37,394 bases of DNA from a virus (lineage: Duplodnaviria; Caudoviricetes): positions 1 through 37,394 of IMG/VR virus record IMGVR_UViG_3300038314_000668. One strand, 5' to 3'. Positions 2,236 to 33,019 of this stretch are shown here, piece after piece. Position numbers and translations under genes: made by a program. A model generated the notes under the pieces. That model ran no database searches, was not told the DNA's origin, and worked only from the letters and a program-made list of their open reading frames with translations. Every line of letters begins with the position of its first letter. Positions within the stretch are counted from its first letter, which is position 1.

Positions 2236-3616
2236 TTTTTACGACAACTGGCATATTGACGCTATTTGTGAATATCTTGAAGCAGTGGCTGATGGTGATG
2301 TTCGTCGCCTGATAATCAACATTCCTCCGAGGCACATGAAAAGCATCACATCCTCGGTTGCTTTGCCAGCTTGGCTGTGGACGCGCGATCCCCGGAAAAG
2401 ATTCCTGTTTGCATCGTACGCAAATTCCCTGTCAATAAGGGATTCGGTTAAATGCCGGAGGCTAATTGATTCGCCTTGGTATCAAAACCATTTTGGAGAG
2501 TCGTTCCGCCTAACAACTGATCAAAATCAAAAGCAGCGATTTGATAATGACAAGACAGGTTATCGTATAGCGACATCAGTTGATGGTGCGTTGACTGGTG
2601 AAGGTGGTGATATTATCGTTATAGATGACCCACACAACGTCAGAGAGGCTGAGTCTTCAACTGTTCGTGAGGGTGTGCTTGAGTGGTGGGATCAAGCTAT
2701 GCAAACACGCCTGAATGACCCGAAAACTGGTGCTTTTGTTATAATTATGCAGCGTGTTCATGAGGTTGATTTGACTGGCCATATCTTGGCCAATGATCTT
2801 GATGGAGATTGGCACCATTTATGCTTGCCAGCACGTTATGAGCCAGACCACCCATCAATCTTGACTGGCACTGGTCAAGGGATTGATCCTCGTAAACAGC
2901 GTGGTGAACTACTTTGGCCAGAGAGAATTGACGAAAATACCTTGTCAAGTCTTGAGAGATCACTTGGAGAGTATGCAGCAGCAGGTCAGCTTCAGCAAAG
3001 GCCAATGCCTCGTGGTGGCACAATTCTAAAGACAAAATGGTGGAGCGAATGGGATTCCGATAAGCTGCCAGATGTAGAATATGTTCTCCAGTCATGGGAC
3101 ACAGCTTATTCAGAGAAAGAACGATCAAGTTATTCAGCTCGTACAACATGGGGTGTTTTCAGCAAGGACAATGCTTGGAATGCTATTGTTATTGATTGTT
3201 GGTACGATAGGGTTAGTTATCCTGATTTGAGGCGAGAGGCACAGGATGCTTATCAGGAGTATGAACCTGATGCTGTGCTCATTGAAAAGAAAGCCAGTGG
3301 CCAAAGTTTGATACAGGATTTGCGCATGGCAGGCATTCCTGTGCTAGAATATATGCCCGACAGAGACAAAGAAGCACGTGCTCATGCAGCATCAGCTTTG
3401 CTCGAGGATGGAAGAATTTGGTTTCCTTCAAACAAAAAATGGGCTAAAGATCTAATAAGCATATGCGCAGCCTTTCCAACTGGGGAGAATGACGATATAG
3501 TTGACACATGTACTCAGGCTTGGTTGAGGTTGAGAAAAGGATGGTTCTTGACGCACTCTGAAGACTGGGAGGATGAGCAGGAGCCACCTAAGCAGAAGGC
3601 AGTTTTATATGGCTAG
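2108..3616 (+). CDS. terL: Terminase large subunit
   Basis: INIPPRHMKS (Walker A), IIVIDDPH (Walker B), IIMQR, QQRP, SWDTA and NDDIVD nuclease motifs. Confidence 0.95.
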   Translation: MTSPQLSEFLNTLSLTEIRAEKMRRSLKQFIQESWQIIEPGRNFYDNWHIDAICEYLEAVADGDVRRLIINIPPRHMKSITSSVALPAWLWTRDPRKRFLFASYANSLSIRDSVKCRRLIDSPWYQNHFGESFRLTTDQNQKQRFDNDKTGYRIATSVDGALTGEGGDIIVIDDPHNVREAESSTVREGVLEWWDQAMQTRLNDPKTGAFVIIMQRVHEVDLTGHILANDLDGDWHHLCLPARYEPDHPSILTGTGQGIDPRKQRGELLWPERIDENTLSSLERSLGEYAAAGQLQQRPMPRGGTILKTKWWSEWDSDKLPDVEYVLQSWDTAYSEKERSSYSARTTWGVFSKDNAWNAIVIDCWYDRVSYPDLRREAQDAYQEYEPDAVLIEKKASGQSLIQDLRMAGIPVLEYMPDRDKEARAHAASALLEDGRIWFPSNKKWAKDLISICAAFPTGENDDIVDTCTQAWLRLRKGWFLTHSEDWEDEQEPPKQKAVLYG

Positions 3617-6137
3617 CAGAGACCCAATGACAGTTATTCCTTTCTCTGAAGGGATGCCGGATGACGCTTTGGAAGTTGAAGAATTGCCAGACGGCAATGT
3701 TCTTGTTGGCGCACCAGAGCCAGATGATGATGAGCAGGACAGTCGCTTTGATGAGAATCTGGTAGAGCAAATAAACATAAGAGAATTAAAAAGCGCAGCC
3801 TCTGAGCTGATAAGTTTCTTTGAGTCAGACAAAGCTGGGCGAGCTGAGTGGGACTTGCGCTATAAAGATGGCCTCAAAACATTAGACATAGATGGCAATC
3901 TTGTTGATGATGACGAGGACCGAGCGGTCCGGGGACTGAGTCAAGTTGTTCACCCAATGATTGCCGAGGCAGCAACGCAGTTTCAAGCACGCGCAATCGC
4001 AGAGTTGTTCCCACCGGGAGGACCAGTCCGCACAGTTATAATTGGCGAAACAACTGAAGATCTTGAAGAGCAGGCAACTCGTGTCAAGGAATACATGAAT
4101 TACCAAATCACAGAAAATATGCCCGAGTTCTTCCCTGATTTGGACAAAATGCTCTTCCACTTGCCATTGGTTGGCCAGACTTTCAAAAAGGTTTGGTATG
4201 ACCCAACGATGGAGAGGCTGACGGCACGTTTTGTTCAGGCAGAAGACTTTGTCGTTTCACCGGATAGCACAGATCTCAAGACATCACCACGCTATACCCA
4301 GATAATAAAGCTGTCTCGGAATGACTATAATAGATTCGTTCGTGCTGGTTATTATGAGCCTCTTGATGCAAGAACAGGTGGCACTGAAGATAGCGACCAA
4401 AACACTGTTGAGAGTATTGAGGGAATTTCGTCGTATGATGCTGACAGGGATGATGGCACAGTTGTCCTCCTTGAGATGCATACTTATTATATGTTTGACG
4501 GAATTGATGGTGCTGATTCCTCAGATGACAATGCAGTTGCGTTGCCTTATGTTCTCACAATTGACCAAGAAACGGAAACCATTGTTTCAATTCGCCGTAA
4601 TTGGCATGAGGACGATGAGCGTCAAGAAAAGCGTGATTGGTTTGTTGAGTATAAATTCCTTCCAGGACTTGGTTTCTATGGCTTTGGCCTTTACCACATA
4701 ATTGGTGGCCTTGGCAAAGTTGCAACAGGAACATTGCGTGCTCTCCTAGATTCTGCTGCTTTCTCTAATATGCAAGGTGGCTTTAAATTAAAAGGCAGAA
4801 TTCCCGGTGGCGAAATGGACATCGCTCCTGGAGAATTTATAGATCTTGATGCAACGGTTGACGATGTTAAGAAGGCAGTCATGCCGTTGCCATTCAAAGA
4901 GCCATCAGGAACTTTGTTCCAGTTGCTTGGCTTTATTGTTGATGCCGGACAACGGTTTGCTGCCACGGCAGATTTGAATGTTGGAGATGCTAACAATACT
5001 GCCCCTGTTGGCACAACAATTGCTTTGATTGAGCAAGGATCAAAGATCTTTAGCGCGATTCACAAAAGGCTTCACAATGCCCAAGGCTTAGAATTCAGAT
5101 TGATGATTGAACTGAATTCGCTGCATCTTGATGAAGAAATAGAATTTTCTGTTGCTGGCGTTTCAAGTGTTGTCAGAAGAGAAGACTTTGACGATAGAAT
5201 TGACGTTATTCCAGTTTCAGATCCTAATGTATTTAGCTCAACGCAGCGAATTGCTCAGGCTCAAGCTATTTTGCAAATGGCTAATTCGGCACCACAGCTG
5301 CACGATATGCATGAGGCATACAAACGAATGTATCAAGCCATTCGTGTTCAAAACATTGATGAAATTCTTATTGAGCCAGCAGAAGCAGCCCAAATTGATC
5401 CGGTTGACGAGAACATGGCAGTTCTCCTTGGCAAGCCAATCAAAGCATTTATTGAGCAGAACCATGAGGCCCATATTGCCGTTCACATCCAGTTCATGAA
5501 TGATCCTTCATTGGCAGGAAATCCCGCAGCCCAGCAGTCACTCGGCCCAGTTTTGATTGCCCATATTGCGGAACACGTTGCCTTGCTTTATCGCTTGCGA
5601 ATGGAGAAGGCCATGGGCATTGATATGCCTCAGTTGCCTGATATGAGAGATCCTAAATTTAAATTCGACGACATGCCCCCGGAAATGGATAATGCTATTG
5701 CCCAGCGAGCAGCTCAAATTGTTCAGCAATCTCCGCAAATGAAACCAATCCCAGGATTGTCAGATATTGGTGGCCAGCAGCAAGGTGCTCAAGATCCGTT
5801 AGAATACGCCAAACAACTCGCGCAACTTGAGGCTGAGGCTCTTAAAGCTCGCACTGAGGCAGAAATTCAATCTGATCAGGCCAAGGCACAATCCGACATG
5901 GCTATTGATCAGGCCAAGGCACAGCAGCAACTTCAAGCACAGATGATGAAAGTTCAAGCAGATCTTGAAGCTAAGATTGCTAAATTGCAAGCAGACATTG
6001 AACTTGCGCAACAGAAAGCTGTAATTGACGCACAGATCGAGGAAGTGAAAATTGATGCCGAGATTCAGCGAGATGCTGAAAAGACAAGCGCAGAAATTCA
6101 GCGTGAAAATATCAAAACACAAGGAGATATTCTTTAA
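3609..6137 (+). CDS. Portal protein
   Basis: Follows terL; HPMIAEAATQFQARA, FKKVWYD, FLPGLGFYGFG, PVGTTIALIE, SAIHKRLH, DVIPVSDPN motifs and a long Q/A coiled-coil C-terminus; ATG 3609 preferred over 3573. Confidence 0.9.
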   Translation: MASRDPMTVIPFSEGMPDDALEVEELPDGNVLVGAPEPDDDEQDSRFDENLVEQINIRELKSAASELISFFESDKAGRAEWDLRYKDGLKTLDIDGNLVDDDEDRAVRGLSQVVHPMIAEAATQFQARAIAELFPPGGPVRTVIIGETTEDLEEQATRVKEYMNYQITENMPEFFPDLDKMLFHLPLVGQTFKKVWYDPTMERLTARFVQAEDFVVSPDSTDLKTSPRYTQIIKLSRNDYNRFVRAGYYEPLDARTGGTEDSDQNTVESIEGISSYDADRDDGTVVLLEMHTYYMFDGIDGADSSDDNAVALPYVLTIDQETETIVSIRRNWHEDDERQEKRDWFVEYKFLPGLGFYGFGLYHIIGGLGKVATGTLRALLDSAAFSNMQGGFKLKGRIPGGEMDIAPGEFIDLDATVDDVKKAVMPLPFKEPSGTLFQLLGFIVDAGQRFAATADLNVGDANNTAPVGTTIALIEQGSKIFSAIHKRLHNAQGLEFRLMIELNSLHLDEEIEFSVAGVSSVVRREDFDDRIDVIPVSDPNVFSSTQRIAQAQAILQMANSAPQLHDMHEAYKRMYQAIRVQNIDEILIEPAEAAQIDPVDENMAVLLGKPIKAFIEQNHEAHIAVHIQFMNDPSLAGNPAAQQSLGPVLIAHIAEHVALLYRLRMEKAMGIDMPQLPDMRDPKFKFDDMPPEMDNAIAQRAAQIVQQSPQMKPIPGLSDIGGQQQGAQDPLEYAKQLAQLEAEALKARTEAEIQSDQAKAQSDMAIDQAKAQQQLQAQMMKVQADLEAKIAKLQADIELAQQKAVIDAQIEEVKIDAEIQRDAEKTSAEIQRENIKTQGDIL

Positions 6138-6662: not shown

Positions 6663-6830
6663 ATGAATTGGATAAAATCAAGGTTGATTGAACCAACTAC
6701 ATGGTTGGCGGTTGGTATTGGAGCAGTTGTGCTTTCAATTATTATACCTCAGGCATCGCTGACATTTCTTGTGATTGCAGCAGTTACTGTCGGTGCTGGC
6801 GTCTTCATGAAGGAAAAGGGCAATGGCTGA
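6663..6830 (+). CDS. Small two-TM membrane protein, holin-like (55 aa; not in ORF track)
   Basis: MNWIKSRLIEPTTWLAVGIGAVVLSIIIPQASLTFLVIAAVTVGAGVFMKEKGNG; GGAGGA upstream; two hydrophobic stretches and a charged tail. Confidence 0.75.
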   Translation: MNWIKSRLIEPTTWLAVGIGAVVLSIIIPQASLTFLVIAAVTVGAGVFMKEKGNG

Positions 6831-7056
6831 TGCGGTAGACATGAAGGCAATGTTTAAGGCTAAGATGGGCTTTTCTTCCGAGGATGTTCCTTTGGATGAT
6901 GAACAGCTTGAAAATTTCTTAATGCTTTGCCACCAGTCAATGCTCGGAATTTCTGATGACGATGGCGAAGAAAATGAAGTCAAAGTCAAAGTCATGAAAA
7001 TTCATGATGGCAATGTTCACGGTATGATGGATAAAATCCTCGGCAACAATTACTAA
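6823..7056 (+). CDS. Small acidic hypothetical protein (77 aa)
   Basis: ORF with AAGGA RBS, overlapping the previous gene. Confidence 0.7.
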   Translation: MADAVDMKAMFKAKMGFSSEDVPLDDEQLENFLMLCHQSMLGISDDDGEENEVKVKVMKIHDGNVHGMMDKILGNNY

Positions 7057-7068
7057 AAGGAGTTGCAA

Positions 7069-7164
7069 ATGCCCTATGGCAAAGGAACATACGGGACGAA
7101 ACGTGGTCGTCCACCCAAGCAAAAGAAGAAGGTCGTTAAGAAAATCAAAAAGCGACGCAAGTAA
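7069..7164 (+). CDS. Very basic microprotein (31 aa) with AT-hook-like KRGRPPK
   Basis: MPYGKGTYGTKRGRPPKQKKKVVKKIKKRRK; AAGGAG RBS at 7057-7062. Confidence 0.75.
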   Translation: MPYGKGTYGTKRGRPPKQKKKVVKKIKKRRK

Positions 7165-7166
7165 TA

Positions 7167-7307
7167 ATGCCTGTCCGCAAGGTCAAAGGTGGATATAGAT
7201 GGGGCAGTTCTGGTAAGGTCTATAAGACCAGAGCAGCAGCTGAACGTCAAGGTCGTGCCATCTATGCATCAGGCTATAAACGAGGAAAGAAGCGTGGCAA
7301 GAGGTAA
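7167..7307 (+). CDS. Basic microprotein (46 aa)
   Basis: MPVRKVKGGYRWGSSGKVYKTRAAAERQGRAIYASGYKRGKKRGKR; fills the gap between neighbours exactly. Confidence 0.75.
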   Translation: MPVRKVKGGYRWGSSGKVYKTRAAAERQGRAIYASGYKRGKKRGKR

Positions 7308-7309
7308 CA

Positions 7310-8065
7310 ATGGCATTAACTGATGGCTATGGAAGCTATATTCCTACGAGGGTGACAGGGGCATTAGGAAATTTGACGGACGACCTCAGCATATTGGGTG
7401 AGGACGAAGCTGCAAATGATCCTGAATTAACACTTGCCTCTTTTCGCCCGGATGAGGCCCAAGCCAAACTTGGTCTTTCTAATGTTACTCCCCACAAGGG
7501 TTGGCTCTCCTCTATCAATCAAGCGATGCCAAATATTTCAGACATCCAACAAAACTTATCGTTAGCCATTCAAGATCCAGGAGCTGCTCTCGACAAGGCT
7601 TTCCAAACAGATACCTCAATAGTTCCTTGGCTTGCTTTGCCAGTTCCTAATACCACTGCGATTACTGCTCTCGCAATGCTTCAATCAAAACTTCTCCAAC
7701 AAAGGCAATTGGCTGATGTGAGAGGATTGCGAGACATGACAGCCGGGGTCCCCGGAGCTTTTGGCTACGCAGGATCTGTTGATGATCCAGACTTTCCTGG
7801 CTCCAAGACTGGCTTTACTGTTGGCCCCGGACTTTTTGGGGGAATGGTTCCAAGCTATGCTGCTCTTCCTGGAAGACTTGATGAGTATCCAGATACTGCT
7901 TGGGCTATGGTAGACGCAGCACAAGCACAAGCACAAGCACAAGCACAAGCACAAGCACAAGCAAATATTGAAGCGGCAAAAGCAGAAGTCGATGACGAAG
8001 GGGGCTATGATCCCGGCCCAGACCCGGACATGGAAGATGAAATGGAAGGTATGGAAATGGATTGA
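7310..8065 (+). CDS. Acidic hypothetical protein with N-terminal GALGNLTD tag and AQ repeat
   Basis: GAGGT RBS; VTGALGNLTDD near the N-terminus; D/E/M-rich C-terminus. Confidence 0.8.
   Translation: MALTDGYGSYIPTRVTGALGNLTDDLSILGEDEAANDPELTLASFRPDEAQAKLGLSNVTPHKGWLSSINQAMPNISDIQQNLSLAIQDPGAALDKAFQTDTSIVPWLALPVPNTTAITALAMLQSKLLQQRQLADVRGLRDMTAGVPGAFGYAGSVDDPDFPGSKTGFTVGPGLFGGMVPSYAALPGRLDEYPDTAWAMVDAAQAQAQAQAQAQAQANIEAAKAEVDDEGGYDPGPDPDMEDEMEGMEMD
7919..7963 (+). repeat. (GCACAA)x7 perfect tandem repeat encoding poly-AQ
   Basis: Seven identical hexamers plus GCA. Confidence 0.95.
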
Positions 8066-8071
8066 TGTGTG

Positions 8072-8737
8072 ATGCCAAGTAAAGGTGACATAGTTCGTGG
8101 CGCATTGGAAGGTTTGTCGGATGCTGCCCAGCGATGGGTCAATTCCATCAATGAAGATCTATTCGAATGGCCAGAATTTGTTGAAAAGGTTAAGAATCTT
8201 GACAAGGAAGCACCATTCGTATTTTCTCAATACGAGCCTAAAGTTTTAAGATCCGCTCTTGCTGAAGCTGCAGATGGTGTGGCAGATTTAGCAGTCATAA
8301 AGCCTGAAGACTTCCGCCTGCTTGCTGCTAGGAACATTGAGATGTGGATGCACGGTGGCAAAAATTTTTCCCCTGACGACCCAATAACTCAAGACATATA
8401 CAGAAAAATAGACGAATATGCTGATATGTACGAAAAGGGCATACAGTTCAATGACATTCCTTATCTTAGGGTTGATCCGACATCCGAGGGAATTGCACAG
8501 GTTGTTGGTCACGAAGGTCGCCACAGAGTTCGTGGTCAGGAAAAGATTGGCGCGGATGGCGCATTGATAAGAATACTTCGCCCAAAGGACTACAAAATTA
8601 AAGGCTCTGATGATGTTCTGTACACACAAAAAACTTCAGCAGAAGGTGGTAAAAAATACAAGCCCACAGCCGATGTCTTAAAGTTCTTGAGTCTTGGTGG
8701 CACAGCTGGTGCTCTCGGCAATTTGGTGGAAGAATAA
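8072..8737 (+). CDS. GAL-tagged protein with a ParB/Srx-like motif
   Basis: VVGHEGRHR resembles the ParB/Srx GxHR motif; N-term SKGDIVRGALEGLSD, C-term AGALGNLVEE. Confidence 0.7.
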   Translation: MPSKGDIVRGALEGLSDAAQRWVNSINEDLFEWPEFVEKVKNLDKEAPFVFSQYEPKVLRSALAEAADGVADLAVIKPEDFRLLAARNIEMWMHGGKNFSPDDPITQDIYRKIDEYADMYEKGIQFNDIPYLRVDPTSEGIAQVVGHEGRHRVRGQEKIGADGALIRILRPKDYKIKGSDDVLYTQKTSAEGGKKYKPTADVLKFLSLGGTAGALGNLVEE

Positions 8738-8773
8738 TGGGCAAAGGCAAATATGTTCGTGGCGCATTGGAAG
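8708..8773 (+). repeat. Gene-junction repeat, copy A (C-tag, TAATG, N-tag)
   Basis: GTGGAAGAATAATG and AAAGGCAAATAT.TTCGTGG.GCATTGG shared with 9433-9501; GTTCGTGGCGCATTGGAAG (8755-8773) identical to 8093-8111. Confidence 0.9.
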
Positions 8774-9468
8774 CATTGACGGATGCCTACAAGAGGACAT
8801 TTGCCCCTGAGACATATTATCATTATTCGGACAGTCCGAATATCAAAGAATTTAATCCCGAAGCAGAAGACTCTTGGGGTCAGGGGACATGGCCAGCAAG
8901 GTTCAAGGAAAGAGGCGCAACATATTTCACCAAAGACCCTAGATATGCTGAGGATATTTTTAGAGAGCAATTATTCATAAAAAATAAATCTGGCGCCATA
9001 CCATTGTCAATTAGAAAAGGGAATATCCCAACACAGTATTTTGAAGAATATCTTAAATTAAATCCTGGGGCTGCTCCATCAACATACCCAGTTAAAATAA
9101 AAACAAAAGATATATTTGATTTTCAAAATCAAAAACAAGTTGATGATCTTATAAGTGAATTGTCCCCAGACCCTGATTTAATTCGTGATGGCACATTAGA
9201 TGATGTTATTTATTTAATTCGACAGGGAAATTGGGAAGTCCTTGAAGAAGAATCAATAAGAAAAATTTTAAAAGACAAAGGATATCGTGGATATAGAACT
9301 AACGAGCAAGGAACAGTTGGCCTTTACTATCCGGACGAAGGTGATGTTCGCTCTGTTCATGCCAAGTTCGATCCAAAGAAATGGAGATCGGGAAACATCC
9401 TTGCCTCAGTCCCAGCTGGCGCATTGGCGACAGGCGCACTCGGAAATTTGGCTGATGTGGAAGAATAA
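8737..9468 (+). CDS. GAL-tagged ADP-ribosyltransferase-like (ART-PolyVal-like) protein
   Basis: Motif order YYH..EF..GATYFT..YA..YPVKI..GYRG..YP..VRSVHAKFDP matches my recollection of ART-PolyVal domains; N-term GKGKYVRGALEALTD, C-term TGALGNLADVEE. Confidence 0.7.
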   Translation: MGKGKYVRGALEALTDAYKRTFAPETYYHYSDSPNIKEFNPEAEDSWGQGTWPARFKERGATYFTKDPRYAEDIFREQLFIKNKSGAIPLSIRKGNIPTQYFEEYLKLNPGAAPSTYPVKIKTKDIFDFQNQKQVDDLISELSPDPDLIRDGTLDDVIYLIRQGNWEVLEEESIRKILKDKGYRGYRTNEQGTVGLYYPDEGDVRSVHAKFDPKKWRSGNILASVPAGALATGALGNLADVEE

Positions 9469-9501
9469 TGAGTAAAGGCAAATATATTCGTGGTGCATTG
9501 G
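9433..9501 (+). repeat. Gene-junction repeat, copy B
   Basis: Near-identical to 8708-8770 apart from a 6-nt indel and scattered substitutions. Confidence 0.9.
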
Positions 9502-9926
9502 GCGCGATAATAAATGCCTCTGATTTATTCAAAGCAAAGACTGAGGCTGATGCGCAAAAGTCTATGAGAGAAACGCAAAAATTCATGGGAGCAAGCGACG
9601 AGTATCTTGATTCAATAGGTAAAGGAGTTCGTTTCCAGGAGAAGCCAAGTTATTGGGAGGATATTGATAAGAGCATCTCCTCTTCCCAATTGAATGATTT
9701 GGAACAGGTTCTTGGAAAAAAATTGAACACGTATGATATTAATTCAGTTCTTGAAGATCCAAATCGGCCATTATCAAACTTGATGCGTGACAACTTGAAA
9801 GAAGAAGATCAGATAAAGGGTTCTTCTTTTATAGTTTGGGACCCAGACAGTCAATCTCGCTATCTTGTAAATACAAGCGGAGCAGACTCATATGTACGGA
9901 TGTGGACTGGCATTGATTATGATTGA
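9468..9926 (+). CDS. GAL-tagged hypothetical protein (152 aa)
   Basis: TAATG-coupled; N-term MSKGKYIRGALGAI; no C-terminal tag. Confidence 0.8.
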   Translation: MSKGKYIRGALGAIINASDLFKAKTEADAQKSMRETQKFMGASDEYLDSIGKGVRFQEKPSYWEDIDKSISSSQLNDLEQVLGKKLNTYDINSVLEDPNRPLSNLMRDNLKEEDQIKGSSFIVWDPDSQSRYLVNTSGADSYVRMWTGIDYD

Positions 9927-9938
9927 GGATAGAAACTG

Positions 9939-10130
9939 ATGGCCAGAGCTAAAATCAAAAAAGTCGCTGCTGCAGAGATCCGAGCTGCCAAGAGTTTTCT
10001 CAAGCGTCGTGGTTTTACAACCAAGGATATCTCTCCGCGTAAATTTGCCCAAGCAGCCAAGGAGCTTGATAAATCATTCATCGAGACGTTGCAAATTCTC
10101 GCACAAGAAATTGAAGGTGGTCAAGGATAA
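9939..10130 (+). CDS. Small basic helical protein (63 aa)
   Basis: GAGGA RBS; K/R/A-rich N-terminal half. Confidence 0.75.
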   Translation: MARAKIKKVAAAEIRAAKSFLKRRGFTTKDISPRKFAQAAKELDKSFIETLQILAQEIEGGQG

Positions 10131-10600
10131 TGGATTTATCTCAATTCATGAATAATTTAAAATTCAAGATGAGTCTTGGGGGATCTGGAATTGTAGAAGG
10201 AGCCTCAGAAGGAGGAGTCAAAAGTCAAAGCTCAAATATTGGCGGAAAGGTCGGCTTGGGCATTGATACAGGTGGCGAGTCAAATCTAGATATTAGTGCC
10301 AGTGGTGGCTATGAAACTGGTGATGTAAGTTTTCCTGGTGCTCTTCAGAGACTTTACAATTTGCCACCAAAGATTAAATTTGGGACACGTGGTGTTCTTG
10401 GTGGGATAAACGAAGTTGAAGGAGTGTGGCGTGGCCCCGGAGGGGCATATGTAAGAGGAAAATTCAACCCGCAAACTGATGATGCGGAGGCTGGCATTGG
10501 TATTCAAATACCATTGGGTGGCCAAAATAAACAGAACCCACTTTGGAAAATTTGGAATTGGCCAAGATATGGCCCCAATAGATACACAATGCCAAGATGA
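10130..10600 (+). CDS. Gly-rich, beta-strand-patterned hypothetical protein
   Basis: TAATG-coupled; alternating strands GGKVGLGI, LDISASGGYE, AYVRGKF, AEAGIGIQIPL. Confidence 0.7.
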   Translation: MDLSQFMNNLKFKMSLGGSGIVEGASEGGVKSQSSNIGGKVGLGIDTGGESNLDISASGGYETGDVSFPGALQRLYNLPPKIKFGTRGVLGGINEVEGVWRGPGGAYVRGKFNPQTDDAEAGIGIQIPLGGQNKQNPLWKIWNWPRYGPNRYTMPR

Positions 10601-10606
10601 TAGATT

Positions 10607-12526
10607 ATGAGTAAAGGCGAATTAATTAGTGGGGCATTGACCCACCTGACAGATCTTTTCGGGAGCTTCTTTTCACCAGCTCAAAAAGGAGCAGATAAGC
10701 TGGTGCAGAGAAGAGGAAGAGCTGAGCAAATGAAGGAGCAATTAATAAAAGGTGGTGGCTCTGGTACAAAGTCTGAACTTGAATGGATCGGTTTTGATGA
10801 TTGGCTAAAGGACAATCCTAATCCTACAAAATCACAGATTCAAAACTTTATTAACGAAAATAAATTTAAACTGACGGAGCAGTTTCGCACCTACGATCCG
10901 GCCGAGCAAATGCTTGGCAAAGAAGGAAGAGTGCGTGATCTCACAACACCTTCCATTAAACGAGCTGAACTCTACAAAGATTTTATAATTAATGCATCAA
11001 GAGATAAATATCTATGGGATAAAATATTCAACAGTCCGGGTGTTGATCCCATAAACCGTCGAGAATTTGACAGCTTTACTTCTGATGCTGACAGACTTGA
11101 TTATATTAAGCGAACCGAAACTGACATTAGCAACAGAACAGGAGAAAGAACTTCACATATTATAGATGATTCCATACGTTATCCAGGTTACAATGTTCCA
11201 TCTCCAGTATTTCCTTTATTTGGCCATCCGGAATATGGAAAAATTGCAGGGCATCTTCTCGGTCCTCAAACAAGGCTTGATCCGGGACATTTTGTTCCCG
11301 GTAGAGTTAGCCCAGCACAACTTGTTGAAAACTATCGTCAACAAGTTATAGACGCAACCCCTCGTTATGCTCACTGGGAGAGCCATTCTCTTCCTGGTGG
11401 TACAAATAAGAGAGAAATTACTTGGTCAATCCCTCATTCTTATGCTGGTAAATTCATGGATCCATCCAGTCATTTTGATTCTATCAAAGAAGGAGAAAGT
11501 TTGTTTGGCTGGGTTCGTTTGGCAGACCATGTTACTGCTGATGGCAAAAGAGTTCTACTTATTGATGAGATGCAAAGTCCTTGGCTCCAACTTGGACAAA
11601 AGCATGGTTTTGCAATGGACCCAGCCAAGAGATTGAGAGAAATAGAGGACGAAATTCCAAAGGCCACTGAAATTCTTGAAAAAAATCACAATAAGGCTAG
11701 GCAAGAAATTTATAACAAGAACATTTATGATTACTCGTATGATTACTCGCAATTGCATAAACCTTTAGAATTTGAAGTTGGATTTGGCTCAGATAATTTT
11801 GAAGCACATGTTGCTTCTAAGTTCCAGGAGCTGCTTTTGGAAACTTATTCGTCATTGGATCTGGATTCGACAAATAAGGCTCTGAGGAAAGTATTGGATG
11901 AGCTTACTGCCATTGATGAAAATTTCCCCAGAAAAAGTTTCAGAGACCTTTTCGATTTTGTGAGAAACATGGATGTATTTCGCGAGGCTCGAAAGGCCAA
12001 TACAAAAATTAATAATTTATATCTTGAAAAAACAAAGGTAAGCAGCCTCTCGAGAGATGAGCTTTATGAACCATCACGCCAGAGTCAGTTGTTGCCTGAT
12101 GCTCCTATGAAAAATACTTGGCACAAAGTAATGTTTAATCGTGTCTTGGGGTTGGCTGCTGAAGGTAATTATGATATGGTAGCTTGGACACCGTCAGGTA
12201 TTCAAATTGATCGTGCAAATCCTGAAACAGCTAAAGGAATGATCCGGTTTTATGATCAGGCATTGCCAAATGCTGCACGACAATCCTTAAGAAAATTTGA
12301 TAAAAAGGCTACTGTTACAAATATTGACCTTAAAATTCCTGAAAGCCAGCAGAAGCAATGGCAGATAGAATCGGATACCCAGCCAGTACGGGGCATGGAA
12401 ATTTCACCAGCAGCAAAGGGCAAGATCTTTAAACAAGGATATCCATCCTTTGCCTCAGGTGTTCCTATTGCTGCTGGCAGTGCAGGTGCTCTTGGAAGTT
12501 TGGTTGGGGAGGATATAGGTTTATGA
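10607..12526 (+). CDS. GAL-tagged large protein with a polyvalent-protein-type (LPGG...ExQS...PDAP...FYD) domain
   Basis: KSELEW, SLPGGTNKRE, RVLLIDEMQSPWLQ, PDAPMKNTW, NYDMVAW, GMIRFYD motifs, recalled from large phage virion proteins; N-term MSKGELISGALTHLTD, C-term AGALGSLVGED. Confidence 0.75.
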   Translation: MSKGELISGALTHLTDLFGSFFSPAQKGADKLVQRRGRAEQMKEQLIKGGGSGTKSELEWIGFDDWLKDNPNPTKSQIQNFINENKFKLTEQFRTYDPAEQMLGKEGRVRDLTTPSIKRAELYKDFIINASRDKYLWDKIFNSPGVDPINRREFDSFTSDADRLDYIKRTETDISNRTGERTSHIIDDSIRYPGYNVPSPVFPLFGHPEYGKIAGHLLGPQTRLDPGHFVPGRVSPAQLVENYRQQVIDATPRYAHWESHSLPGGTNKREITWSIPHSYAGKFMDPSSHFDSIKEGESLFGWVRLADHVTADGKRVLLIDEMQSPWLQLGQKHGFAMDPAKRLREIEDEIPKATEILEKNHNKARQEIYNKNIYDYSYDYSQLHKPLEFEVGFGSDNFEAHVASKFQELLLETYSSLDLDSTNKALRKVLDELTAIDENFPRKSFRDLFDFVRNMDVFREARKANTKINNLYLEKTKVSSLSRDELYEPSRQSQLLPDAPMKNTWHKVMFNRVLGLAAEGNYDMVAWTPSGIQIDRANPETAKGMIRFYDQALPNAARQSLRKFDKKATVTNIDLKIPESQQKQWQIESDTQPVRGMEISPAAKGKIFKQGYPSFASGVPIAAGSAGALGSLVGEDIGL

Positions 12527-12892: not shown

Positions 12893-13240
12893 ATGTCTCA
12901 TCAACATGTTCCCCAGCCTGTCGGCTGGAAAGTTTTAGTGAAACCAGTAGAACCAAAAACACAAACGGAAGGTGGTGTTTATCTTCCTACACAAGCTGTC
13001 GATGCAGAGGAATATTTGACAGCTCACGGTCACATTGTAGCTATGGGTGAAATGGCTTATCACGAAAGGGAAAGTGGTAGAGCTTGGAAAGGAAATTGGC
13101 CAAAAGTTGATGACCATGTCACTTTTGGTAAATATGCCGGACAAAAAGTCACTGTTGATAATGAGAGATTCTTATTACTCAATGATGATGAAATAACTTC
13201 AATTTTGCCAAATGGTTGTGAGGTGACAAGTCATGTCTGA
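12893..13240 (+). CDS. groES: Co-chaperonin GroES (Cpn10) homologue
   Basis: PVGWKVLVKP, KTQTEGGVYLP mobile loop, VTFGKYAG, LLNDDEI. Confidence 0.92.
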   Translation: MSHQHVPQPVGWKVLVKPVEPKTQTEGGVYLPTQAVDAEEYLTAHGHIVAMGEMAYHERESGRAWKGNWPKVDDHVTFGKYAGQKVTVDNERFLLLNDDEITSILPNGCEVTSHV

Positions 13241-14156
13241 TGAAAGAAGTTTAGAGGATCAACAGAAGGATCTTGAGGAGCAAATTGCGAATGCTCCATT
13301 GGAAATTGAAATAACAGAGGAAGTTCCTGAGGCCCAAGCTGATGAAGAATCCGATAATAAAGAAGTTGAAGAAGCCAAACAAGTTGAAGACGACAAAGAA
13401 TTTAGCAAACGGGTTCAAAAAAGGATCAGCACTCTCGTTCAACAACGTAACAAAGCTGAACAGGAGCGTGATCAAGCATCATCTGAATTAAATTCATTCA
13501 AAGTTCGTTTGGATCGTTTGGAGCAAGGCAATAGCCAACAGATTCAGAATGATTTTAATTCACGCTATGAGCAAACACGTGTTCATCTTCAAAATGCAAT
13601 TGAAGAAGGTGACACCCAGTCGCAAGTTGCGCTTCAAGAACAACTTGCCGATATGCGTGCAGCAATGCGTGTTGCCGAAATGCAACGTCGAAGTGTATCC
13701 CAACAGCAAATTTCTCCAACTGTTGGTCGTGCAGCGCAAACCTATGAAGAGCCAACACCTGTAAAGGCCATTGATTGGTGGCAACAGAATCGTTGGTTTA
13801 ATTCTGATGGTTATGAAAGAGAAACCGCAGCTGCAAGAGCCATTGATGTCCAGCTTGATCTTGAGGGACATGATAAAAATTCTGATGCTTATTACGAGGC
13901 TCTTAATAATAGGCTAAAAAATATGTTTCCAGATTTAATTTCTGGAGGTAAAGTGCAAAATACAACTGAAAGGCCAAGGGCAAAAAGTAGATCTCCAGTT
14001 GCACCAACTACAGGTGGCCCTAGTCGGAAAGGGAATAGAGTTAAAATGACCAAGGATCAATTGCAAATGGCTCGTGAACTTGGAATTACTGATGAAAAGG
14101 CACTAAAAGCCTATGAAGCAGAAATCCAAGCAACACAGGAGGCAAACAATGCCTGA
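13233..14156 (+). CDS. Putative capsid scaffolding protein
   Basis: Acidic N-terminus, coiled coil (FSKRVQKRISTL), WWQQNRWF, C-terminal helical hairpin (MTKDQLQMARELGI); upstream of MCP. Confidence 0.7.
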   Translation: MSDERSLEDQQKDLEEQIANAPLEIEITEEVPEAQADEESDNKEVEEAKQVEDDKEFSKRVQKRISTLVQQRNKAEQERDQASSELNSFKVRLDRLEQGNSQQIQNDFNSRYEQTRVHLQNAIEEGDTQSQVALQEQLADMRAAMRVAEMQRRSVSQQQISPTVGRAAQTYEEPTPVKAIDWWQQNRWFNSDGYERETAAARAIDVQLDLEGHDKNSDAYYEALNNRLKNMFPDLISGGKVQNTTERPRAKSRSPVAPTTGGPSRKGNRVKMTKDQLQMARELGITDEKALKAYEAEIQATQEANNA

Positions 14157-15224: not shown

Positions 15225-16130
15225 ATGGCAATGCACAGAGCACAATTTGCTAAAATGCTCGAGCCAGGACTTAACACCCTGTTTGGCCTCGAGTACGACC
15301 AATACCCTGAAGAGTATAAGCCAGTCTTTGCGGCGAATACTTCTTCAAGAGCATATGAAGAAGATGTCCTGTTGGAAGGATTCGGAAATGCTCCAGTCAA
15401 GACAGAAGGTGCTGCAGTTAGTTATGATGAAGCTACCCAGCAATGGACAGCTCGTTATCAGCACGAAACTGTTGCGCTTGCTTTCTCGATTACGGAAGAA
15501 GCGGAAGAAGATGGCCAATATGGCTCTCTGGCTGCACGTTATACGAAAGCATTAGCTCGCTCAATGGCTTCCACAAAGGAAATCAAGGCAGCTAACATTT
15601 TCAATAACGCCACCTCTAGTAGTTATACTGGTGGTGATTCAGTCGCTCTTTTGAGCACTTCACACCCAACGCGAAATGGCAACCAATCAAATACGTTGTC
15701 AACAGCGGCAGATCTTTCAGAAACTTCTCTTGAGTCGATTCTGATTGACATATCTAATATGAAGGATGACCGAGGATTGCGTGTTGCGGCACAAGGCACT
15801 CGTCTCATCATTCCTACAGCATATGTCTTTACTGCTGAGAGGCTTCTTGAGTCTCAACTTCGCTCCGGGACTGCCGATAACGACATTAACGCGATTCGCT
15901 CTGGCGGTTATCTACCGCAGGGCTATCACGTTATGCGTCGTATTTCTGATTCGGATCGCTGGTTTATCCAAACGGATGTTCCGGATGGATTAAAAATGTT
16001 CCAGCGCTCTGCGATGAAAAAAGGCATGGAAGGCGATTTCGAAACTGGAAATGTTCGCTATAAAGTTCGTGAACGATATTCGTTCGGTTGGACTGATTGG
16101 CGTGGTGTTTTCGGTTCTGAAGGCGCATAA
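15225..16130 (+). CDS. Major capsid protein (Mu gpT-like, HK97 fold)
   Basis: AGGAGG RBS; LEPGLNTLFGLEY, ITEEAEED, DLSETSLE, GDFETGNVRYKVRERYSFGW; followed by a strong terminator. Confidence 0.92.
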   Translation: MAMHRAQFAKMLEPGLNTLFGLEYDQYPEEYKPVFAANTSSRAYEEDVLLEGFGNAPVKTEGAAVSYDEATQQWTARYQHETVALAFSITEEAEEDGQYGSLAARYTKALARSMASTKEIKAANIFNNATSSSYTGGDSVALLSTSHPTRNGNQSNTLSTAADLSETSLESILIDISNMKDDRGLRVAAQGTRLIIPTAYVFTAERLLESQLRSGTADNDINAIRSGGYLPQGYHVMRRISDSDRWFIQTDVPDGLKMFQRSAMKKGMEGDFETGNVRYKVRERYSFGWTDWRGVFGSEGA

Positions 16131-16172: not shown

Positions 16173-16754
16173 ATGGCAGAGGCAAGAAAAAGAACAGGCG
16201 AGCTTGGAGCACTAAATAATATTGGTGCAAATAACTCACAAATAGACGACGAACGTCTCACAAGGCAGTCACACCCTGAACAATCTATTGTTCCTTTTAT
16301 AGAACAGGCAAAAATCAGCTCTTATGATCCATCGAAAAAAGATGAGATTGCTTATCGGCTCGCTGAAATTGTAGGCTCCGGGGATCGTTCATCTGTTCAA
16401 AGGGCGAGAAAAATTCTCGATTCTGCAGAACATATCTACGACTGGGGGACACTTCCCCTTTACTTTACACAGGCAGCACCTTTTGCTGCTGCCTTTGATA
16501 TAGCCAGAGGTGTTGCTAATAAAGAGCCTTGGGATGTGCTTCTTGGCACTTGGGGAATAAGCAGACCACTTAAATCAATGCCAGAGCTACTTCCCCCTGG
16601 AATGGAGAAGAAACTCGGTCAGGTATTTGGTTCTGGTGCTATTACGCAAGGCTTATTAGATTTCTTTGCAAGTTTAAAGGGCAAATCAGAAACAAAAAAG
16701 CGAAGAGTTACGCCATTGCAAAGGCTTCAGAATATAGATTTATCTGCCTTATGA
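16173..16754 (+). CDS. Hypothetical protein inserted after MCP, with N-terminal LGALNNI
   Basis: 193-codon ORF starting right after the terminator; GAL-like motif near the N-terminus; hydrophobic Ala/Gly helices. Confidence 0.7.
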   Translation: MAEARKRTGELGALNNIGANNSQIDDERLTRQSHPEQSIVPFIEQAKISSYDPSKKDEIAYRLAEIVGSGDRSSVQRARKILDSAEHIYDWGTLPLYFTQAAPFAAAFDIARGVANKEPWDVLLGTWGISRPLKSMPELLPPGMEKKLGQVFGSGAITQGLLDFFASLKGKSETKKRRVTPLQRLQNIDLSAL

Positions 16755-29267: not shown

Positions 29268-29582
29268 ATGGCAGATGTTCCACCAATGATGACAGAAGAA
29301 GAAATGATGGCTATGGCAAATGCTCCTGAGCCAACAATAAATCAATCAATTGGCCCGGAAGGTGCGGCTGGTATGTTGCAGCCTGATGAGGACATTCAAG
29401 TTGTTCTTTTGTCAAGGCTTGAATCGCTAACTCCGGAAGAATTGATGATGCTTGATTCTATGATTGATAGCAACACAGCGCAAATTCTTCTTAAGATCTT
29501 ACCGGAACTTCAACAATTGATGGACATGTTTCTTTCTCAAGGAGGAGGTGGACAACCTGCAGGTGCATTATCTGGGATGTAA
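29268..29582 (+). CDS. Acidic Met-rich protein ending in AGALSGM
   Basis: AAGGAG RBS; 104 aa. Confidence 0.75.
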   Translation: MADVPPMMTEEEMMAMANAPEPTINQSIGPEGAAGMLQPDEDIQVVLLSRLESLTPEELMMLDSMIDSNTAQILLKILPELQQLMDMFLSQGGGGQPAGALSGM

Positions 29583-31042: not shown

Positions 31043-33019
31043 ATGATAGTACCAAGTCGTCCAGCGCGGTCATTAGCGATTGAACGTGAGCGGATGAGGA
31101 ATAGCCTTATCGCCGATGCTGATCCAAAATGGACTCTAGAGGATCTTCTAAGAAAGGCAACGGGATACCGGGACATCCTTATTCGTAGAGGCCTCCCGAC
31201 AGACAATCTAGAAGATAAGGATGTTCGTCGTTTCTATGATGCTGGATTGCCGCCTAAACAAATAAGTGCCACGTTGGATCAGATTTTAGAACACCATAAA
31301 GCAATTTCTAAAGACCCGAATTATGAAGGCACTGTAACAGATCCTGTTTGGTTTGACCAGCGGATCAAGGATTTGCAAGAATATGGTAAAAAATCTGGTA
31401 CACCATATCCTATGTTTCCTAGAGCTTATGATGATTTACCATATTTCATAGATCCGGATGAAACTCCATTGCCTTTGCCTCTTGGTGAATATTCTGCTCG
31501 TCTTGATCGCGATAGAAGGTTATCCGAAGCAGATCTTCTTGCTCGAAAAAAATTAGATGTTGAGCATCTTCAAAAACAGAAGTTGACACCTGTAAAATAT
31601 GGATATTCTTATCCTGGAAGAGGTGGTCAAACTTATTATCAGCCAGAATCAGAAGAATTCAAATTCCCTCCGGAGAGCAATCAAGTGAATACACAGACGC
31701 CAGCCCTAGCAAAAGTAGGAGGAGCTGTCCCCCCAGCTCCTGCCGCCACCACCCTAAACGCTGCTAGGGCTGGCAACCTCGGGGCTGCTGGAAATATAAA
31801 TGCTGCGCTAATTAACAATAAGTATGGTGCTTTGTTAAATCAAGCTAAGTTAATTGGCCGACATTTAGCTCCGCAAAAGATAGATGATCAAAAAGACAAG
31901 TGGCTGACTGCATTTCAATTTTTTACAAATATGGCAGCAGCAGCAAGCGAGCCAGGAGCCACAGCAATTGGGGCAATGGGCAAGGCTGGAGCTGCAACCG
32001 TTGAGACACTTATTGAAGAGCGTAAACAAAAGCGTGCAGAAGAATTAGCATCAACGAAGATGGGTGTGGGTCTTATAACTGCTTTGGGTAAACCGAGACC
32101 ATTGAAAGTTGGTGCACAGCACGGTGAGCAAGCAAAATATATGAATCCAAAAGAGGCTGAAGAATATTTACTAAACAAGGGTCTAGATCCTAATAGTCCA
32201 AATCTTCCAAGATTGATCAAAGCTCTAAAACCTCCAACTGATAGTATGCTTGGGAAAAATGTTGTAAATGCAGATGCATTTGTGCAAATGATACCAATAG
32301 TTCAAGCCGGTAAAATTGTTGATTTCAATTTGACTTCAATGGTTAACCCAATACCAAGATCCGCTGCCTATTTCAGGAAAAGAATGGCTGATCTTGCAAA
32401 AGACGATAAAATGGTTGACACGCTCACCCAAGTCCTTCCGCAAGTTAAAACAGGTTTGAAAGTCATTCTTAATGGGGAGGTTTCTACTGGTATCTTGCCT
32501 AGCCTTATTCTTCCTTTGGAACAAATGTGGTATGAAGCATTCGGAACTAAAGTTCCAGAAAAAGTAAGTCAAGCTCGAACTCTTGAGTCTTTGTCAAACT
32601 TCCTTGCTCCAAAAATGAGGCCAAAAGGATCAGGTTCAACTTCTGATATGGAATTTGATGCATATAGAAAGGCCATTCTCGCTCTTAAGAATCCAAGACT
32701 TACAAATTACCTTGCCTTATATTCATTTTTGAAAACACAACAAAATTCTGTAAAGGCTAATAGTCTTGAGAAAGAGATTTTGGTTGGAGGTGGAACTCCA
32801 GACGACGTTCGCAAAGCTGTAGAAAAAATGAACTTGTCATTATTTGAATCATATAAAGGTGATCCAAAGGACAACGATGCTTTAAATAAATGGTATAAAA
32901 GCCTTCCCAGAGGAGCAGTGATTTATAATATTGATTCTGAAGGTAAAAAATTATATCCGACAAACAGTGCTAGAAAACCAGTTGGATTATTCATAGTTAA
33001 AGGCTGGAAAGAAATATGA
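31043..33019 (+). CDS. Putative internal virion/ejection protein (658 aa)
   Basis: Position in the ejection cluster; central Ala/Gly-rich helices; C-terminal GSGSTSDMEF motif. Confidence 0.6.
   Translation: MIVPSRPARSLAIERERMRNSLIADADPKWTLEDLLRKATGYRDILIRRGLPTDNLEDKDVRRFYDAGLPPKQISATLDQILEHHKAISKDPNYEGTVTDPVWFDQRIKDLQEYGKKSGTPYPMFPRAYDDLPYFIDPDETPLPLPLGEYSARLDRDRRLSEADLLARKKLDVEHLQKQKLTPVKYGYSYPGRGGQTYYQPESEEFKFPPESNQVNTQTPALAKVGGAVPPAPAATTLNAARAGNLGAAGNINAALINNKYGALLNQAKLIGRHLAPQKIDDQKDKWLTAFQFFTNMAAAASEPGATAIGAMGKAGAATVETLIEERKQKRAEELASTKMGVGLITALGKPRPLKVGAQHGEQAKYMNPKEAEEYLLNKGLDPNSPNLPRLIKALKPPTDSMLGKNVVNADAFVQMIPIVQAGKIVDFNLTSMVNPIPRSAAYFRKRMADLAKDDKMVDTLTQVLPQVKTGLKVILNGEVSTGILPSLILPLEQMWYEAFGTKVPEKVSQARTLESLSNFLAPKMRPKGSGSTSDMEFDAYRKAILALKNPRLTNYLALYSFLKTQQNSVKANSLEKEILVGGGTPDDVRKAVEKMNLSLFESYKGDPKDNDALNKWYKSLPRGAVIYNIDSEGKKLYPTNSARKPVGLFIVKGWKEI
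31699..31774. repeat. Nested inverted repeat inside a CDS
   Basis: GCCAGCCCTAGCA/TGCTAGGGCTGGC (13 bp perfect) enclosing AGGAGCTG/CAGCTCCT (8 bp perfect). Confidence 0.85.
32273..32296 (+). repeat. 24-bp exact direct repeat, copy 2
   Basis: Identical to 6500-6523. Confidence 0.9.

Follow-up and report, generated by a model that had tools for sequence, protein, structure and literature searches.

In this study we describe a short terminal peptide motif, Gly-Ala-Leu (GAL), which is shared by otherwise unrelated proteins encoded between the portal and GroES genes of a podovirus. The DNA analysed, called the window here, is the entire IMG/VR record IMGVR_UViG_3300038314_000668 of 37,394 bases. 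It is the late region of a marine podovirus of the CRP-901 type and encodes terminase, portal and GroES, a probable scaffold, a coat of the HK97 type and SU10-type adaptors together with an ejection cluster (Table 1). Among cultured phages it is closest to the Roseobacter phages CRP-901 and CRP-902, with a coat identity of 82% (81.7% to CRP-901) and a portal identity of 62%; HTVC023P-type pelagiphages come next with a coat identity of 57-60%. CRP-901 and CRP-902 resemble the window in their homologous head/tail module, which is what the comparison covers, in gene order, in the tagged interval (tagged proteins gp66 and gp68 in CRP-901, gp65 and gp68 in CRP-902) and in the ejection genes, but the window forms a separate subclade in the portal tree.

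A sequence-only reading of the window had described an array of proteins with shared GAL-containing ends at 7310-12526 and had proposed that the motif is a docking or processing signal which loads interchangeable effectors into the head for co-injection. All eight termini that it quoted are found in the genes to which it assigned them. Six interval proteins have at least 100 residues, and when 30 residues are taken from either end of each, GAL is present in 8 of these 12 ends. In 200,000 trials in which each end was shuffled internally, the maximum was six ends with GAL and none reached seven. The array is present as described, but it is not confined to this block, as gene 29268 of the ejection module also ends in GAL; inside the block, genes 9939 and 10130 are without a terminal tag.

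The absence of mutual similarity in the sequences between the tags was upheld when we looked for full-length paralogy. Trimming 25 residues from each end leaves a single match of 25 residues (E 0.006 in a database of 7 proteins), the five tagged window proteins fall into five different core families, and hhalign gives the family profiles of genes 8072 and 8737 a probability of 0.7. The proposed core GALxxL proved too strict. While GAL is nearly fixed, the leucine at +5 is found in 16 of 36 N-terminal and 14 of 33 C-terminal tags, and the family consensus is better written as G-A-L-x-x-[L/I/M]-x-[D/E], with a net acidic downstream part and C-terminal tags that end in acidic residues.

Table 1. 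Positions of the features of the window discussed in the text
Feature	Position	Strand	Remarks
Portal protein	3609..6137 (start may be 3573)	+	phrog_1216 E 1.7e-44; 62% to CRP-901 gp75; left border of the cargo interval
Small acidic untagged protein	6823..7056	+	In 10/10 complete near-clade intervals, 0/21 far
251-residue acidic protein with AQ repeat	7310..8065	+	GAL at residue 17 (7358-7366); singleton family
Predicted ParB/sulfiredoxin-like cargo, HEGRHR motif	8072..8737	+	N-tag GAL 8099-8107, C-tag GAL 8708-8716
63-nucleotide gene-junction repeat, reference copy	8726..8788	+	Spans stop, ribosome site, start and N-tag; further copies at 8064, 9457 and 10596
Predicted ART-PolyVal-like ADP-ribosyltransferase cargo	8737..9468	+	N-tag GAL 8761-8769; C-tags 9418-9426, 9433-9441
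152-residue putative cargo, no assigned fold	9468..9926	+	N-tag GAL 9492-9500
Basic 63-residue untagged protein, candidate adaptor	9939..10130	+	10/10 complete near intervals, 1/21 far; mean column identity 76%
156-residue Gly-rich protein	10130..10600	+	GAL internal only (residue 70); not counted as tagged
639-residue putative cargo, domain found inside polyvalent proteins of 2-3 thousand residues	10607..12526	+	N-tag GAL 10631-10639, C-tag 12485-12493
Co-chaperonin GroES	12893..13240	+	PF00166 E 1e-15; right border of the interval, after gene 12693
Probable scaffold (position, coiled coil, C-terminal helix pair)	13233..14156	+	phrog_28737; no terminal GAL; leading candidate receptor
HK97-fold major capsid protein	15225..16130	+	PF25209 E 1e-14; second candidate receptor
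Small ejection-module protein	29268..29582	+	Ends in invariant GAL (29562-29570) after variable linker
Putative second large ejection-module protein, ejB	31043..33019	+	GAL at 31826 behind N-terminal extension; downstream of gene 30023

Distribution of the tag and exchange of its carriers

For the relatives of the window we used 160 viral loci retrieved by portal and coat, with genes from a simple caller, some of whose starts are wrong. Loci with a coat identity of at least 75% or a portal identity of at least 54% form the near clade, which gave 87 near loci (including the window), 60 far loci of the HTVC023P type and 14 unassigned ones. The interval is taken from portal to GroES and terminal means the first or last 30 residues. 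Proteins of less than 100 residues, X-containing proteins and those at locus edges were dropped, and the rest were collapsed at 80% identity. A terminal GAL is found in 53 of the 115 near-clade interval proteins, five of them from the window, where shuffled ends lead us to expect 5.9 (maximum 17). It is found in none of 188 core structural proteins, in 5 of 101 other near-clade proteins, in 4 of 53 far-clade interval proteins and in none of 40 early genes from six near genomes. An unbiased scan of three-residue words ranks GAL at the top, and its permutations stay low unless they overlap GAL (LAG 7, AGL 2, GLA 3). As related proteins are not independent, the count by family is the safer measure; tagged members occur in 23 of the 44 core families.

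These observations were repeated in a held-out set of 78 more loci fetched with the 8072 family, from which that family and proteins 80% identical to the first set were excluded. There, 27 of 75 interval proteins are tagged (2.7 expected, maximum 9) and none of 72 core proteins. An absence of terminal or positional enrichment among the relatives would have refuted the idea of the sequence-only reading, and we found enrichment in both sets instead. The density of GAL per 1,000 residues is 19.8 in the outer 15 residues and 1.2 beyond residue 90, with 1.0-6.8 in the bins between. Among the 115 proteins the tag is N-terminal only in 22, C-terminal only in 19 and at both ends in 14. The 70 tags comprise 32 different nine-mers in which every synonymous codon is used, and therefore the constraint acts on the protein. 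Variants also occur among the 115 proteins (GSL 8, GVL 5, GTL 7), and GSL is found in none of the 188 core proteins.

The carriers of the tag are exchanged between genomes. We compared the first eight residues, the leaders, of 53 proteins from 22 hand-picked loci. Leader identity is 0.30 across families within one genome, but 0.11 across genomes (permutation maximum 0.19), and members of one family from different genomes reach 0.19, so leaders track the genome and not the cargo. Contigs of run X5 with flanks 96-99.5% identical to the window depart from it at 8823 and 9517, right after N-terminal tags, and rejoin it at 9352 and 9933, before the next conserved segment. By eye, the unmatched contig ends at 9517 and 9933 belong to a cargo family of L007, L217, L225 and L226 which is missing from the window. 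Nearly identical strains differ in their set of cargo, although the pairing cannot be fixed exactly, since the leader can be placed at more than one site. A joint from 8092 to 8755 in the same run was rejected as a deletion, since its support is a side of 32 letters and a repeat of 19 letters. A further difference of this close strain lies in gene 7310, where a perfect tandem repeat of 6 nucleotides (7918-7963) encodes the AQ run. Together with the family counts and the held-out set, the exchange of cargo bears out the earlier description of a portable, terminal tag on unrelated, interchangeable proteins.

The gene junction that includes the N-terminal tag is itself repeated, with four copies of 63 nucleotides in the window that are 60-81% identical. 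This raises the question whether the tag could be a by-product of gene-junction copying, in which a recombination or translation-start cassette is duplicated before new genes and the peptide has no function. The four copies, the exchange of cargo at tags and the sharing of codons within genomes all fit such an explanation: residues shared between leaders share their codons in 139 of 226 cases, compared to 87 expected from pooled codon use. It does not account for the full synonymous freedom across the clade, for C-terminal tags, which lie outside the start cassette, or for genomes in which GAL stays while the surrounding leader differs completely. The C-terminal GAL of gene 29268 is also invariant after a variable linker, at a distance of 28 kb from any series of such junctions. 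We regard a mere by-product as very improbable.

Tagged putative cargo and ejection-module proteins

The tagged proteins had been suggested to be effectors, and this is backed by homology to domains of polyvalent proteins. In a Pfam search of 95 near-clade interval proteins, PBECR5 is above the cut-off in three and ART-PolyVal (PF18760) is below the cut-off in seven, with E values of 1.5e-5 to 1.4e-3 and 20-26 bits against a cut-off of 31.2. All seven are of the gene 8737 type and align with gene 8737, although the window protein itself has no Pfam match. Pfam, PHROGs and NCBIfam returned nothing above cut-off for the interval genes of the window. The gene 8072 family has an invariant H-x-G-R-H-R-x-R. 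The model of its window member (predicted local distance difference test score 75.5) has a disordered C-terminal tag, and its top Foldseek rows are Osa, PadC, Srx and ParB, which are consistent with each other but all have E above 0.001; the VIA comparison with Srx is modest (Z 5.4, root-mean-square deviation 4.4, 87 aligned residues).

The domain of gene 10607 lies inside 11 longer homologues of 2.0-3.1 thousand residues, seven of which bear Pfam marks of LPD22, ART-PolyVal, SLT, InPase, LPD1/5 or zeta-toxin. Four fusions of the 8072 and 10607 domains were found as well (P0012-P0015; 1.4-1.8 thousand residues). For gene 9468 we found no longer homologue, which is a weak negative. A tblastn search of cultured phages gave one weak match for 10607 and none for 8737, genes 10607 and 9939 matched nothing in the ESM Atlas but unnamed viral clusters, all below 0.9, and no solved structure matched the coat, portal or 8737 profiles by sequence. 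Domains of these types have been described as packaged and injected (PMC5512222, in the part of the article available). The interval may be seen as a polyvalent arsenal in single-gene form, with predicted activities.

Ten cargo proteins from both clades have a Tat-like twin-arginine segment, RRxF[LMI]K ahead of a Gly/Ala-rich stretch, often directly behind the GAL tag, and one of them has a PF10518 match above cut-off (L001:6101, L007:15306, L007:15884, L225:7480, L226:935, L017:4072, L020:528, L023:5923, L031:7226, L033:2571). This segment possibly mimics a signal for host-membrane anchoring or export.

The tag extends to the ejection module, which we surveyed in 19 near-clade stretches with homologues labelled by BLAST. 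Gene 30023 matches phrog_4287, 'DNA ejection protein'. Gene 29268 has 15 homologues in this survey, each of which ends in GAL; CRP-901 gp35 and CRP-902 gp36 do so too, and the motif is an invariant island behind a variable linker. In ejB, GAL lies within the first 40 residues of 6 of 10 labelled homologues, and it is found in 6 of 16 homologues of gene 27931. Proteins taken for comparison are without it (GNAT 0/17, nozzle 0/7). The C-terminal GAL of ejA (9 of 16) was not counted, since it sits in a Gly-rich segment that is also present in far-clade ejA. The tag thus appears to be tied to proteins expected inside the head, where an ejection role is suggested by their position and one PHROG match.

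In the window, ejB has about 230 extra N-terminal residues ahead of the homologous segment, which make its GAL internal; this extension resembles a cargo domain added by fusion. Homologues of gene 27931 are also found in the portal-GroES interval (L252:4598 and L264:2763, with L265:1862 and L272:3723 by eye), two of them with an N-terminal GAL, which indicates that genes move between the two tagged regions.

Two Lys/Arg-rich open reading frames of less than 50 residues (7069-7164 and 7167-7307) precede gene 7310, similar basic peptides fill the intervals of all relatives, and these are candidate DNA-condensing head proteins. Right after the coat gene lies a variable gene (16173-16754) with GAL at residue 12, whose relatives have GAL at residues 31-102, and which is possibly cargo outside the interval. 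Immediately upstream of the terminase genes an ArdC-like anti-restriction gene (543-1472; ArdcN and MPTase-PolyVal) is kept in L006-L009.

The xGG tag of the sister clade

In the far clade the large cargo is placed before the portal. Our first de novo scan, made in the portal-GroES intervals of this clade, found no motif, as its cargo precedes the portal. Of the far pre-portal proteins, 13 of 32 have a terminal [KREDNA]-G-G-hydrophobic pattern, called xGG here, against 0.6 in shuffled ends, and two have GAL. A broadened xGG pattern is found in 6 of 9 held-out far fusions against 0.5 expected, and in 2 of 75 near intervals against 3.3. The xGG tag occurs on the large far-clade cargo and on ejection-module proteins (for example L025, L031, L033, L048, L052, L058, L270 and L279, and psg01 in L223).

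The same domain can be found with either tag. Homologues of gene 10607 that did not go into the profile (E below 1e-54) share the domain terminus, which is then followed by xGG, while near-clade copies have GAL, and homologues of gene 8072 differ between the two clades in the same way. In a quick portal tree with 45 rows, 24 of 27 near rows are GAL-dominant and none is GG-dominant, while 10 of 17 far rows are GG-dominant. By these comparisons the tag follows the head genes and not the cargo. As there are two clades only, this is one switch and not a series of independent events. One clear mixed case is a far-clade fusion of 1,596 residues (L295:4413 and L301), with GAL near its start and xGG at its end.

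The two motifs also bear on the possibility that the tag docks on a chaperonin or on another host or phage factor, for example on GroEL together with the phage GroES, and that the proteins act late in the cell and not from the virion. GroES adjoins the interval in all these phages, its loop binds GroEL, and the xGG pattern matches this loop too. GAL is unlike the GroES loop, yet GroES is conserved across both clades. Coat and portal, which we would expect to be major GroES clients, are among the 188 proteins without a terminal tag, and ejection-module proteins are tagged. Docking on a chaperonin therefore seems improbable to us.

A probable head-loading address and its rivals

We suggest that the GAL tag is a head-loading address peptide, probably read by the scaffold or the coat, and consider this reasonably likely. 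During prohead assembly the tag would dock proteins on the scaffold or on the inner wall of the coat. The docked proteins would be carried in the particle and likely be ejected into the host with the DNA, with release at head expansion and exit through the portal. New genes might acquire the tag by copying of the 63-nucleotide junction. The cargo would be early-infection effectors, with a predicted ADP-ribosyltransferase, ParB-like nuclease/NTPase, PBECR RNase and other polyvalent-protein domains, and these effectors are predicted to be single-domain proteins here and not one giant fusion. Head loading is argued for most strongly by two observations that the sequence-only reading had missed, namely that ejection proteins are tagged and that the sister clade has an xGG tag in place of GAL.

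Several observations weigh against a head-loading address. A terminal GAL is absent from 60 of the 115 near-clade interval proteins, although GSL, GVL or GTL is present in some; these proteins may use variants, ride on partners or be no cargo. Among ejection-module proteins, ejC is tagged in 1 of 7 cases only, and the window proteins 27931 and 33016 have no terminal tag. In the gene 8072 model the N-terminal tag lies within a helical subdomain and is not a free peptide. The excess of codon sharing shows that part of the leader similarity is due to copying and not to selection. The xGG pattern was picked after inspection of the data, three of the 17 far rows in the portal tree are GAL-dominant, each on a single hit, and both motifs occur in L295. 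We found no virion proteomics for any member, and the available text of the CRP-901 paper has no hit for 'mass spectrometry'. Finally, C-terminal tags follow a moderately hydrophobic Gly/Ala stretch (mean Kyte-Doolittle value, KD, 0.99), which is also compatible with a membrane role.

This last point raises the question whether the tag is a signal for exit or membrane crossing, so that the cargo is packaged otherwise and the Gly/Ala tail with GAL engages the portal or ejection channel or crosses the inner membrane of the host. The context is above KD 1.0 in 22 of 33 C-terminal tags, ejection proteins are tagged, and the ten Tat-like proteins combine RRxFLK with a Gly/Ala segment. Only 5 of the 33 are above KD 1.6, however, and C-terminal tags end acidic. 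The context of N-terminal tags has a KD of 0.18 and the C-terminal xGG tags of the sister clade have a hydrophilic value of -0.39 (n=31), so what the tags share is not hydrophobicity. An exit signal is in our opinion unlikely.

If the GAL tag is a head-loading address, the scaffold is the first candidate for its receptor, with nearly even chances, because the loading of ejection proteins in P22 requires the scaffold and N-terminal fragments of these proteins suffice (PMC8402733, part of the text). The coat is a distinctly less probable second candidate, suggested because encapsulins read the peptide GSLxIGSLK inside an HK97 shell. We think it rather doubtful that the tag is read by genes 9939 and 6823, which could be adaptors as both are present in each of the 10 complete near intervals, with gene 9939 in one and gene 6823 in none of 21 far intervals, and equally doubtful that it is read by the portal or another protein. 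No receptor was singled out by the residues specific to each clade, of which the scaffold has 22 and the coat 29. A fold search with the coat model gave an encapsulin at rank 1 (E 4e-3), which we did not use since the model is poor (local distance difference score 56.9), and its weak rows are encapsulins and phage capsids alike. Genes 9939 and 6823 are small, untagged and conserved within an otherwise hypervariable island, and by eye the second half of gene 9939 resembles the C-terminal helix pair of the scaffold. In L116, gene 9939 is present in an interval without cargo. Genome collections gave five matches to gene 9939, on contigs of metagenome-assembled genomes from mixed taxa which indicate no host.

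Short peptides for head loading are known from other phages. In T4, the N-terminal ten residues of IpIII are enough to package fusions (PMC8402733, in part). The GAL tag resembles the T4 capsid targeting sequence of IPI-III as a short terminal peptide on non-essential, here putative, head cargo. The T4 signal is N-terminal, whereas GAL is found at either or both ends of proteins from 23 unrelated families and of ejection proteins, and we claim no likeness in sequence. P22, with gp7, gp16 and gp20, is similar as a podovirus with a long portal, a separate scaffold (here a probable one), an ejection cluster after the tail genes and terminal segments that carry packaging information. But P22 loads three fixed proteins, for each of which a separate binding site has been inferred and for which the available part of PMC8402733 names no shared motif, whereas here we find a variable tagged array. 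The N-terminal 30 residues of the anti-defence enzyme DarB of P1 suffice to package a reporter, and its authors looked in vain for a consensus among Dar N-termini (PMC9024508); here the consensus itself is the finding. In crAss001, cargo binds the portal via a folded domain (PMC10172136, seen in part).

Peptides of Family 1 encapsulins, with the consensus GSLxIGSLK, are usually C-terminal on a flexible tail and bind inside an HK97-fold shell (PMC10960027, part of the text). The GAL tags are likewise short Gly-small-Leu peptides, with GSL variants, in a phage with an HK97-fold shell (PF25209). Encapsulin peptides, which bind in the groove of the P-domain, end basic, however, while GAL tags are acidic, and encapsulins are cellular compartments whose cargo is not ejected; binding of GAL to the coat is a conjecture. 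The polyvalent proteins of Iyer et al. 2017 (PMC5512222, in part) share with our interval ART-PolyVal, PBECR5, ParB-like domains and LPD neighbours, a late-gene context and a proposed packaging and injection. Polyvalent proteins join at least two unrelated effector domains in a single chain, whereas in the window the putative cargo consists of separate genes of 152-639 residues, each tagged, fused homologues are found elsewhere, and the part of that article available to us describes no targeting motif. The GAL tag probably works like a capsid targeting sequence, yet it fails the T4 definition, as it is found at either end, and the encapsulin consensus.

In T4, the targeting signal is linked to processing by the prohead protease. 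GAL could correspondingly be a site at which a phage or host peptidase cleaves during maturation, as the sequence-only reading had allowed with its 'processing signal'. Gly-Ala-Leu with acidic residues downstream could be such a site, and a reference title in the available text of PMC8402733 says that the T4 targeting sequence permits proteolytic processing. Cutting at N-terminal and C-terminal tags, though, would remove 3-30 residues and leave no common product end. We found no prohead protease of the HK97-type family PF04586 in one complete relative, the one family tested (other families were not searched genome-wide), and none is annotated in the head module of either CRP-901 or CRP-902. 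With a tag at either end, processing finds little support and we hold cleavage to be hardly probable.

The sequence-only reading knew of no description of this tag, and our searches of the open literature, subscription papers being outside their scope, returned no account of GAL or xGG tags. No such motif is found in the available main text of the CRP-901 paper (PMC10149686), where the word 'motif' does not occur, or, by a term search, in that of the HTVC023P-type genome paper (PMC9599517). A bolder idea, which we put forward tentatively and with our judgement somewhat against it, is an encapsulin-like code. One conserved pocket in scaffold or coat would read a three-residue address, junction copying would turn genes into injected effectors, and the addresses of sister lineages would be mutually exclusive, with GAL in CRP-901-type and xGG in HTVC023P-type phages.

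As to how podoviruses select their head proteins, the texts available name no shared motif even in the cases of P22 and P1. A single motif would predict the cargo list from sequence, flagging anonymous genes of hypervariable islands as likely injected effectors. The two clades offer a natural swap experiment, with the same domain under a different tag in a different head clade, and two cultured phages, CRP-901 and CRP-902, carry the tag. If the encapsulin-like code were true, the tag would be a minimal, two-ended and orthogonal one for packaging, and some of the most abundant phages of the ocean would have a plug-and-play injection payload. If head loading by GAL is true, it would provide a very short tag for packaging and would explain the gene-by-gene turnover of the anti-host arsenal.

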